A stretch of 64,000 bases of DNA. Origin: Ostreococcus lucimarinus. Its lineage: Eukaryota. Numbering within the stretch: position 1 is the first letter of the stretch; the number at the start of each line of letters is the position of its first letter. A model generated the notes under the pieces. It was not told where the DNA came from. It saw nothing but the letters and a program-made list of their open reading frames with translations, and did not search any database. The stretch lies in assembly GCA_000092065.1 (NCBI GenBank), contig CP000593.1; one strand, written 5' to 3'. Below, piece by piece: positions 19,128 to 22,529 of this stretch. Made by a program: the position numbers and the translations under genes.

Positions 19128-21569
19128 CTAGGACGGTGGCGCGCGACGGCGCCAGCGAATTAAGACGGAGTCGAACATGGGCCAGTTGGCGCACGGAAGC
19201 GTCTCGTCGCGGTCGAAGGCGGCTTCGAGCTCGCGTTGGAATTCTCGGGAAAAACTCATGCCCGTGGCGGTGGTTCCGGGGGCGTAATCGCCAAATGTGT
19301 GATCTCGCCATTCGCCAATCGTGATGATGGTGTCGCCGGTGTAGTTGTCGAGCGTGGCGGTGGCGTAGTCGCCTTCGCCCGCGATGTCGATCCAGGAGAG
19401 CAGGAGCGCTCTGTCGGCGTGCTTGGCCGCACTTTCGGGACCGCCTTTACGTATTCCGTCGAACCAATTCACTTCGGTGAGCTTCGAGGCGCCAATTTTC
19501 GCAGCGCCGCCGTCTTGGTACTCTTCGTCGAACGTCGGCGTGTCGTACGCGATGATATCGACGCCTCGCTCGGCAAGCCGACGAGCCCACAATCCGCCGC
19601 CGGCGCCAACTTCGACGAGCGGCGCGCACTCGGCCAAGAAATCGAGCGCGATCGACGTGGGGACGCTGCAAGCGTGGCGACGCTTGAGCGCCGCGGCCTC
19701 GGCGCCAATGGAGTTAAGATCGGTGATATCTAAGATACCGCACGTCGCCCACTGCGAGAGCAACCACGCGCCCCACTGCTTAACCTTGCACGTGTACACA
19801 CCCGGAAGGAGCATCTCGCCCTCTTTACCGTTGTGCGGGTGCTCCTCTCCGGCGCTGCCATCTATCTCCAAGTCTGCCATGCGTTCAAGGTCGGCATACG
19901 CGGATGCATCGCACGTGGGTATGGTGTCAAACGGCCACGTCTGCGCGTTCGTCGCCGCGCGATTCGCGACGTCATCTTCGGTGTGACCCATCAACCACAG
20001 GTACGCCAAGTTGATCGTCTGTATGTGCGCCGCGACAGGCAGCGCGTCCTCGATCTGTCGAGCATAACGAGCAACTGTTGGGAGCATGGCTTCCACTTTA
20101 GGCCGGCGCTTTCGGAGCTCATGTAACCAACGACAGCCATGACTTTTGCACGTGACGCACTTTGGATCTTCGCACAAGCCCTCTTTCCGCGTCACCGCGG
20201 TGCGCGTCACATCGCGAACAACGGCGTCTAATCTCACCGATGACTCCGCAAATGCTTTTGTCGCGATTCTCCGTTCACCAGAACGCACGAGAAGAGCTAA
20301 ACGTCGCTTGTAAGGCACGTCCGCGAACGGTTTTGCCAATTCGGTGGCGTCGCTCTCGGCGTCGCCGACGGTGAAGCCTTCGCACACGTCTTGGAAGATC
20401 AGCTTGAGCGACGCCAACGCGGCCATTTCGTTCGCCTTGGATATGTACGTGTTGCCGGTTTTGTCGTTTGCACTAGCCATGATCGCCTTGCGCACCTCTG
20501 GATCCGCTAACTCCTCGTCGCCGAGCTGCTGCACGCGCGCCATCATGCGCAGCGGCGGCGGCAACGGCTCGCGCTCGGGCACGGTGTGCTTGACGATGAA
20601 CTCCGCGGTCGATTCTTCTACTTCTAATTCTTCCGCACTGGGCGTATACAGTTGCTGGTACAGCATGGGCAAATACGGTTCGGCGTAATCGCCGCTCTCG
20701 CGCCACCGAGCGTCGATGTCTTGCAGATACGCCACCGCGCTCGCTCGAAGCGCGGTCTCCAACACCGTCTTTCTGAGCTTATCGACCGTAATCGTGAGGG
20801 TCACGTCTAACTCCTCGTAAGGGTTGTCATCGATGCAAAACCCATACCACGTCAAAAGCTTTGAATTCGCCGCCTCACCACTGCCGTAGGAAATAAACGC
20901 TTGCTCGCCCGCCTTGTAGTCGTCCGCGGCGTACACCGTGACGCAGTTCTTCTCCGCGTTAAGCTTGTGCGTCTTCCCCAACGGCGCCTTCGCGCTGTGA
21001 TTAAAAATATCAAACGTCGGCACCATCGCCCGAGTCCGCTTCCCGTCCGGCATCAACAAATCGCACTGCCTCGACCATAAATTCGACCTCGCCCACGCGT
21101 ATCGCTCGTAATCGACCTCGTGTTCGCGCATCCACCCCCCCTCCCCGATCGCCTCCATTTTTTTCGTCAGCGTCTCGTAATCATTTTTCGTCTCCTCCCT
21201 CAGATTCATCGTCTCCCTCAGGCACGTCGTTCCCGTCAGCTCTCGCAGCTCTTCCTCGCTCCAGAAGAACGCCGTGTCGAAGCTTCGCGGCAGCGTCGCC
21301 ACGTGCGCCGCGCGCGTCGCCTTTTCACCCCTGAACCGCTCCGCGCACACGTGCAGCGCGACGACATCGTCGTGTCGCGCGCAGCACGACGCGACGCGCT
21401 TCACCGCGTCGTCCTCCAGCGCCGCCGCGAGCGTGAACCCGCGCTCGAGCGGAATCTCCAGCAGCACCTCCCCTCGCGCGCAATCGCGCAGCGCGCGCTG
21501 CCCGCGCCCGGTGTCCGCGAAATCGTGCGCCTCGACGCGTCGCGCGAGCGTCGCGTCGTCGCGCGCCAT
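19128..21569 (-). CDS. SET-domain methyltransferase (Rubisco-LSMT/SETD3-like) fused to a C-terminal class I (Rossmann) SAM-dependent methyltransferase domain
   Basis: N-terminal GRGQRALRDCARGEVLLEIPLERGFTL. SET core FDIFNHS...NCVTVYAADDYKAGEQAFISYG. An LSMT-like substrate-binding region follows. The C-terminal 270 aa hold VEVGAGGGLWARRLAERGVDIIAYD (motif I GxGxG) and ALLLSWID. The chosen start is ATG 21567-21569 (MARDDATLARR). The 285 codons listed upstream are R-rich artefact. Confidence 0.65.
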   Translation of the reverse strand: MARDDATLARRVEAHDFADTGRGQRALRDCARGEVLLEIPLERGFTLAAALEDDAVKRVASCCARHDDVVALHVCAERFRGEKATRAAHVATLPRSFDTAFFWSEEELRELTGTTCLRETMNLREETKNDYETLTKKMEAIGEGGWMREHEVDYERYAWARSNLWSRQCDLLMPDGKRTRAMVPTFDIFNHSAKAPLGKTHKLNAEKNCVTVYAADDYKAGEQAFISYGSGEAANSKLLTWYGFCIDDNPYEELDVTLTITVDKLRKTVLETALRASAVAYLQDIDARWRESGDYAEPYLPMLYQQLYTPSAEELEVEESTAEFIVKHTVPEREPLPPPLRMMARVQQLGDEELADPEVRKAIMASANDKTGNTYISKANEMAALASLKLIFQDVCEGFTVGDAESDATELAKPFADVPYKRRLALLVRSGERRIATKAFAESSVRLDAVVRDVTRTAVTRKEGLCEDPKCVTCKSHGCRWLHELRKRRPKVEAMLPTVARYARQIEDALPVAAHIQTINLAYLWLMGHTEDDVANRAATNAQTWPFDTIPTCDASAYADLERMADLEIDGSAGEEHPHNGKEGEMLLPGVYTCKVKQWGAWLLSQWATCGILDITDLNSIGAEAAALKRRHACSVPTSIALDFLAECAPLVEVGAGGGLWARRLAERGVDIIAYDTPTFDEEYQDGGAAKIGASKLTEVNWFDGIRKGGPESAAKHADRALLLSWIDIAGEGDYATATLDNYTGDTIITIGEWRDHTFGDYAPGTTATGMSFSREFQRELEAAFDRDETLPCANWPMFDSVLIRWRRRAPPS

Positions 21570-21635
21570 GTCGCGCGTCGCGAATCCGCGTCGACGCGCC
21601 GTCGCGGAGTGACGCGCGAGAGACGACGGCACTGC

Positions 21636-22529
21636 ATGGCGCCGCCGCGCGTCGCGCGCGTCGACGTCGCGCGAACGAGCGTCGCGCCGCGACGCGCGCG
21701 ACCGTCGCGCGCGTCGACGATGCGCGCGACCGCGCGCGCGACGGCGACGGCGCTGGCGCACGCGGACGCGGACGCGGGCGGGACGTACGCGTTCGAGCGC
21801 GAGACGACGGTGACGCGCGTCGCGACGCGCGACGACGGCGGACACGAGATGACGCTGGCGTCCACGATCGCGCACCCGGCCGGAGGCGGGCAACCGAGCG
21901 ACTCGGGACGGGTCGTCGGCGCGAACGGGCGAGCGTGGGCGTTCGACGCGGCGACGCGGCGGCGCGAGACGGGCGAGGTGGCGCACGCGGGAAGGACGAA
22001 GCCGCCGTTCGAGGTCGGCGATGCGTGCCGAGTGACGATCGACGGCGCGAAGCGCGTGCTGCACGCGAGGATACACTCCGCGGGACACGCGCTGGACGTG
22101 GCGATGATTCGCGCGGGGTTGCCGCCGACGACGCTGACGCCGACGAAGGGGGTCCACGAACCGGCGCTGGCGTACGTGGAGTATAAAGGGAAAGTCGACC
22201 CGGAGCACGAGTTGGCGGACGCGAACGCGCTGATGGCGCGATTGAACGCGGAGATGGCGAAGTTGATCGCGGAAGACGGGGCGTCGGCGGCGGCGGAGAT
22301 GACGTACGACGAGGCGAAGGCGGCGTGCGGGGGAGAGCTGCCGGCGTTCATCGCGCCGGATATGACGCCGAGGATCGTGACGATCGTGCCGGATACTCCA
22401 GGGTGTCCTTGTGGGGGGACGCACGTCGCGAGGATGTCGGAGATTCAGGATTTTAAGATGACGGGCGTGCGCGTGAAGAAAGGAGTCACGAGGCTTTCGT
22501 ACGCTATTCCTGGAATGGCGACGTGGTGA
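21636..22529 (+). CDS. AlaX-like alanyl-tRNA editing protein (tRNA_SAD domain)
   Basis: Zinc motifs HSAGHAL (HxxxH) and CPCGGTHV (CxxxH), as in the AlaRS editing domain and AlaX. The start is ATG 21636 or 21720. Divergent from the SET gene, 66 bp between starts. Confidence 0.65.
   Translation: MAPPRVARVDVARTSVAPRRARPSRASTMRATARATATALAHADADAGGTYAFERETTVTRVATRDDGGHEMTLASTIAHPAGGGQPSDSGRVVGANGRAWAFDAATRRRETGEVAHAGRTKPPFEVGDACRVTIDGAKRVLHARIHSAGHALDVAMIRAGLPPTTLTPTKGVHEPALAYVEYKGKVDPEHELADANALMARLNAEMAKLIAEDGASAAAEMTYDEAKAACGGELPAFIAPDMTPRIVTIVPDTPGCPCGGTHVARMSEIQDFKMTGVRVKKGVTRLSYAIPGMATW

Follow-up and report, generated by a model that had tools for sequence, protein, structure and literature searches.

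Can a single algal gene encode two methyltransferases of different fold, and if so, what would such a protein do? Protein lysine methylation is written by two enzyme families, one with a SET domain and one with a seven-beta-strand fold, which normally occur as separate proteins. A locus in Ostreococcus lucimarinus raises this question directly. The window analyzed here is a stretch of 64,000 nucleotides of contig CP000593.1 (assembly GCA_000092065.1), and all positions refer to it. A preliminary description, made from the sequence without database searches, proposed that one open reading frame in this window combines a SET domain of the Rubisco large-subunit methyltransferase (LSMT) type with a Rossmann-fold methyltransferase domain. 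We examined the gene, each of its two halves, and the conservation of their fusion.

Gene model and genomic context

The complete coding sequence is a single exon on the minus strand (positions 19128 to 21569), with the ATG at 21569 and the stop codon at 19128-19130; it encodes 813 amino acids plus the stop. The 814-codon uninterrupted frame reported initially is therefore present, with no internal stops, but it lies on the minus strand; the plus-strand reading of 19128-21569 was rejected because its translation is full of stops. The product is identical to a protein from O. lucimarinus CCE9901 (XP_001421068.1, the same as GenBank ABO99361.1 and UniProt A4S6B9). Public annotation calls it a "SET domain-containing protein" and misses the second domain entirely.

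Upstream of the ATG, the frame remains open for another 285 codons (21570 to 22424, minus strand). We excluded this non-coding extension from the gene because it contains no Met, is Arg-rich, has the codon GC pattern of an antisense frame (GC1 0.88), and lies opposite an AlaX-like tRNA_SAD gene, which is located on the plus strand, divergent from the methyltransferase gene. The 1098-aa ORF that would start from GTG at 22424 was rejected for the same reasons. On the other side, 167 bp past the end of the gene, RbcX follows in the same orientation. We did not retain this adjacency as a functional clue, because it was not found at two more distant loci that carry the fused gene (L007 and L008).

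The C-terminal half is predicted to have a class I methyltransferase fold

The C-terminal half contains a class I (seven-beta-strand, Rossmann-like) methyltransferase-like core (aa 637-810; 19140 to 19661, minus strand) from a family related to phrog_19090. The string initially quoted as evidence for this domain, VEVGAGGGLWARRLAERGVDIIAYD, corresponds to aa 652-676 (19542 to 19616, minus strand) and covers motif I (E653-x-G655-x-G657-x-G659), helix A, and strand beta2, which ends in D676. In a family alignment of 42 sequences, E653, G657, and G659 never vary and G655 almost never does; the motif reads E653-V-G655-A-G657-G-G659 here, and 15 of the 17 fused orthologs retain it. The acidic residue that ends beta2 in class I methyltransferases usually binds the ribose hydroxyls of SAM. 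This residue is present in O. lucimarinus, and orthologs have D, E, N, S, or T at the same position (five of the 17 fused proteins carry N, S, or T).

Two further motifs follow later strands of the sheet. Directly after beta4, at the position of the class I catalytic motif IV, is W726-I727-D728 (19386 to 19394, minus strand). Almost all eukaryotic relatives have WPD there, and stand-alone members of the virus type often have WPPY; relative to WPD, the O. lucimarinus protein has Ile in place of Pro. Directly after beta5 is the family-specific motif G752-E753-W754 (19308 to 19316, minus strand), which is invariant in all 17 fused orthologs compared. The family signatures PxxAL, ExGxGxGxWA, LxLxWP(D/P), and G(E)W can all be located in this protein, at P637, E653 to W661, W726-I-D728, and G752-E-W754, respectively.

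The overall fold was assessed with AF2 models and a fold search. The first model, made from 8 sequences, was too weak (pLDDT 63.7) and was replaced by one made from the 42-sequence alignment (pLDDT 86). In the latter, helices and strands alternate and the seven-stranded sheet closes with a beta6-beta7 hairpin, much as in solved members. On the strength of this model and of the fold search we assign the C-terminal half a predicted class I Rossmann-like methyltransferase fold, with which the invariant motif I agrees. The core is preceded by two long cap helices (aa 586-636; 19662 to 19814, minus strand), modeled at residues 29-51 and 56-72 of the 254-aa construct with pLDDT 84-93; this region is 76-90% identical among Ostreococcus lineages.

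Direct identification of this half by sequence, using Pfam, NCBIfam, and phmmer and profile searches of PDB, returned only sub-threshold matches to motif I (Methyltransf_23, Erm, KsgA, and RPA2492). No curated methyltransferase profile was matched above its threshold: Pfam Methyltransf_23 reached 14.6 bits with the whole protein and 16.1 bits with the domain alone, versus a cut-off of 27, and the NCBIfam Erm model reached 19 bits against a cut-off of 320. The best match in the PDB profile search had an E value of 0.004. Relatives of the domain score 25-28.7 bits with Methyltransf_23, and their alignments are limited to model positions ~12-61 of 164, from motif I to beta2. The preliminary description called this a canonical methyltransferase fold located about 250 aa after the substrate-binding region. 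The term "canonical" overstates the sequence evidence, because the score falls below the Pfam cut-off and the match is confined to the segment between motif I and beta2. The distance was approximate as well: motif I is ~215 aa past the end of the substrate-binding domain and ~420 aa past the end of the SET domain.

The C-terminal domain belongs to an orphan family shared with viruses

The family to which the C-terminal domain belongs comprises ~3,600 cluster representatives and has no Pfam model of its own. Its link to viruses can be seen only with profiles or structure, because a tblastn search of phage genomes with the C-terminal domain from the window found no match. The profile of phrog_19090 was matched with E=1.2e-11 (residues 70-202 of the 254-aa construct aligned with model positions 39-157 of 191), an exhaustive search with a profile made from algal sequences only recovered stand-alone members at E ~1e-24, and the best structural matches were viral (E=3.8e-11, TM 0.67, 22-23% identity). 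Jumbo phages, viruses of haloarchaea, and giant viruses all have members of the family; these include gene 67 of Halogranum tailed virus 1 (HGTV-1) and proteins of Natrialba PhiCh1, Halobacterium phiH, phages Goslar and Miami, Harvfovirus (A0A3G5A0Z9), and Bodo saltans virus. These proteins share ExGxGxG, WP(D/P), and, in many cases, GEW with the C-terminal half studied here; unlike it, they are stand-alone proteins of 170-250 aa that have neither the two cap helices nor the SET and Rubis-subs-bind (RSB) modules. PHROGs labels phrog_19090 as "unknown function", and its viral members are named "class I SAM-dependent methyltransferase".

Does this domain still act as an enzyme, and on what? One possibility is that it is a pseudo-enzyme, a SAM/SAH-sensing, regulatory, or docking module, which would leave the SET half as the sole activity. 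We consider this unlikely: motif I is essentially invariant in about 40 diverse members, including stand-alone viral proteins, which would have no reason to keep a dead domain; D728 and E753, charged and almost invariant, occupy class I active-site positions; and the C-terminal core is the best-conserved part of the protein in a distant ortholog. An active methyltransferase is our preferred reading of this domain.

Its substrate may be suggested by the company that the domain keeps. On the one hand, in eukaryotes, protists included, it recurs in fusions with SET (together with RSB), ankyrin, TPR, zf-MYND, or JmjC domains (RSB was present in 13 of 81 relatives), and these protein-binding or protein-modifying partners point to a protein as the probable substrate. 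On the other hand, stand-alone homologs are located in phage regions beside nucleotide-metabolism genes, such as that for dCMP deaminase, which is a hint, at least for the viral branch, that the substrate is not a protein. If the algal domain likewise acted on nucleic acid, a nucleotide, or a small molecule, the fusion would link methylation of a protein with modification of, say, RNA or DNA, and one protein would not receive both marks; we regard such a coupling as improbable and favor a protein substrate for the algal domain. Whatever the substrate, a function found for one member would annotate the whole family, which joins multidomain proteins of eukaryotes to proteins of the three viral groups named above.

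The N-terminal half resembles SETD3 more closely than Rubisco LSMT

The N-terminal half was described as a SET domain followed by an LSMT-type substrate-binding region, and both parts were confirmed by Pfam matches that exceed the curated cut-offs: SET (PF00856) with 24.4 bits versus 22.4 at aa 21-229, and RSB (PF09273) with 25.6 bits versus 21.6 at aa 324-435. The SET domain, of the SETD3/LSMT class, extends over aa 12-274 (20748 to 21536, minus strand) when the match to SETD3 is taken into account, and the helical substrate-binding domain of the Rubisco LSMT type occupies positions 20265 to 20600 on the same strand. Among solved relatives of this half, SETD3 scores best, with E=5e-21 for the single sequence and 5e-33 for the profile (aa 12-274); the corresponding values for LSMT are 4e-15 and 2e-23, and SETD6 was matched by the profile at 8e-6. 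In profile scores, SETD3 reaches 117 bits versus 86 bits for LSMT. Judged from sequence, the match to the SETD3/LSMT class is far beyond chance, and the protein appears to be a SET methyltransferase of the class VII type, in which SET is combined with RSB, as in SETD3, SETD6, and LSMT.

Human SETD3, the actin-histidine N-methyltransferase (PDB 6MBJ, 6OX4, and others), likewise carries a helical domain of the RSB type after its SET domain, although it has no C-terminal class I methyltransferase domain. We used published definitions of the SETD3 pocket residues and of the role of the Tyr residue (SETD3 Y312, SETD6 Y285) (PMC6684798) to map the corresponding positions, all of them on the minus strand. 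The NH motif is shared (N190-H191, 20997-21002), and so are the catalytic Tyr (Y228, corresponding to SETD3 Y312; 20886-20888) and Ile310 (I226); the NH motif, I226, and Y228 are kept in nearly all of the 17 fused orthologs compared. In the Trp273/Ile310/Tyr312 pocket, SETD3 Trp273 is replaced by F186 (21012-21014), which is aromatic but not Trp. The position of SETD3 Asn255, which hydrogen-bonds the target histidine (actin His73), is occupied by C169 (21063-21065), as seen in alignments with the N255A and N255V crystal constructs, and in the 17 fused orthologs it is C, A, M, F, L, E, or R, never Asn. In SETD3, the N255A and N255V mutants lose activity on histidine and gain activity on lysine. 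Pea Rubisco LSMT (PDB 1MLV, 2H21) and human SETD6 have the same class VII architecture of SET and substrate-binding domains, and neither has a second methyltransferase domain. Their type of pocket, with Phe at the position of SETD3 residue 255 and Ala at 273, is absent from the O. lucimarinus protein, which has Cys and Phe instead.

Could the protein nevertheless be the Rubisco large-subunit methyltransferase (RBCMT/LSMT) of Ostreococcus? The RSB domain, the neighboring RbcX gene, and a Symbiodinium ortholog named RBCMT would fit this identity. However, LSMT is plastid-targeted, whereas the O. lucimarinus protein has no N-terminal extension that could serve as a transit peptide: none was seen by inspection, SET begins near residue 12, and the open codons upstream contain no in-frame Met, from which we judge that the protein is probably not plastid-targeted. 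With SETD3 outscoring LSMT, C169 and F186 in the place of the LSMT Phe and Ala, RbcX missing from the vicinity of more distant fused relatives, and the Symbiodinium label being an automatic domain-based name, we consider a Rubisco methyltransferase very unlikely. The term "Rubisco-LSMT-like" thus applies at the level of the class, and the nearer relative of this class VII SET enzyme candidate is SETD3.

Green algae and dinoflagellates both carry the fusion

The fusion of SET and Rossmann-fold modules is real, and it is conserved in green algae and dinoflagellates. The order SET-RSB-mid-CT was found in at least 16 separate clusters at 50% identity, including those of Tetraselmis, Symbiodinium, and Prorocentrum/Polarella, and full-length orthologs are 69-78% identical, with one more at 32%. 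An Ostreococcus UniRef entry covers aa 182-809. Between the two halves, the linker or middle region (aa 451-585; 19815 to 20219, minus strand) is coding and conserved, and a "mid" profile matches other fused proteins too. A cluster of Cys residues in the linker (C466-x4-C471-x2-C474-x4-C479) is conserved in Ostreococcus only; because this conservation does not extend to other genera, we dropped its interpretation as a general zinc site.

That the fusion is an artefact, with adjacent genes joined by a missed stop, frameshift, intron, or mis-assembly, is scarcely credible, even though high-GC DNA yields many long chance ORFs (such as the overlapping ORFs here) and a few of the metagenome gene calls that share its cluster reach only 632-724 aa: the identical 813-aa product is found on 126 contigs of independent assemblies, the same continuous frame is present in at least nine diverged Ostreococcus lineages and in the relative with 32% identity, single assembled transcripts from dinoflagellates and from MMETSP data (Trinity/MMETSP transcripts of Yihiella, Biecheleria, and others) carry both halves, and the linker is 65-81% identical among Ostreococcus lineages, with no gaps or gaps of one residue and with the GC3 pattern of coding sequence. 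Two different SAM-dependent methyltransferase folds are thus combined in one polypeptide, as originally proposed, with the evidence coming from curated profiles for the SET half and from the model and fold search for the C-terminal half. The architecture was also thought to be uncommon; it defines a conserved family and is not a rarity of the O. lucimarinus genome. Our literature searches found no description of a SET + Methyltransf_23 or SET + seven-beta-strand architecture, and a 2017 survey of SET proteins in Archaeplastida does not mention a second methyltransferase domain.

A possible role for the two-module protein

What the analysis shows is the domain architecture, the fold, and the conservation of the motifs and of the fusion. 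We propose that the protein is a conserved two-module methyltransferase in a single polypeptide, both modules of which would mark one substrate or complex. We put the chances of this interpretation at about even; it implies SAM binding and catalysis by the protein, a protein substrate, and cooperation between the modules. A dual-specificity enzyme was among the suggestions of the preliminary description; it is a possibility that depends on the activity and substrates of both halves. Module 1 (aa ~12-450) would be a class VII non-histone SET methyltransferase consisting of a SET domain and a helical substrate-binding domain, with intact SAM-binding and catalytic residues, and with neither the Asn that specifies histidine in SETD3 nor the Phe/Ala pair of LSMT and SETD6. 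Its target would most likely be a lysine, less likely another nucleophile, in a non-histone protein of the cytosol or nucleus that the helical domain holds. Module 2 (aa ~586-813) would be a seven-beta-strand Rossmann-like domain, predicted to bind SAM through its intact ExGxGxG motif I, with near-invariant acidic/aromatic motifs, WPD after beta4 and GEW after beta5, at positions that hold substrate and catalytic residues in class I enzymes. It may be an active methyltransferase that adds a second, chemically different methyl mark to the protein or complex recruited by module 1.

The idea that both halves would act together on a single substrate comes from an analogy. Human METTL13 (eEF1A-KNMT) has two methyltransferase domains, which modify Lys55 and the N-terminus of eEF1A (PMC10238732). 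Like METTL13, the O. lucimarinus protein has two SAM-dependent methyltransferase domains in one polypeptide, and here a shared substrate is hypothesized. Both domains of METTL13 are of the seven-beta-strand type, whereas the O. lucimarinus protein has one SET and one seven-beta-strand domain, and we detected no sequence relationship between the two proteins. The bifunctional rRNA methyltransferase RlmKL (YcbY) of E. coli has two class I domains, each acting on RNA, and resembles the algal protein only in fold.

A broader and more tentative possibility, which we hold to be somewhat doubtful, is that a conserved family of protein methyltransferases in marine algae (prasinophytes, chlorodendrophytes, and dinoflagellates) uses a SETD3/LSMT-class SET module and a seven-beta-strand module to put two chemically different marks on one abundant cytosolic substrate. 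The family of module 2, not recognized previously, would be common to these algae and to jumbo phages, archaeal viruses, and giant viruses, and may have passed between algae and viruses. If this were true, the protein would be the first natural dual writer of the SET + seven-beta-strand kind, and it would provide the first functional handle on the virus-wide orphan family phrog_19090. A natural fusion of the two kinds of enzyme that has been conserved would suggest a need for coordinated double methylation of some substrate in marine phytoplankton. Ostreococcus tauri can be genetically modified, which makes it a tractable entry point for finding that substrate.

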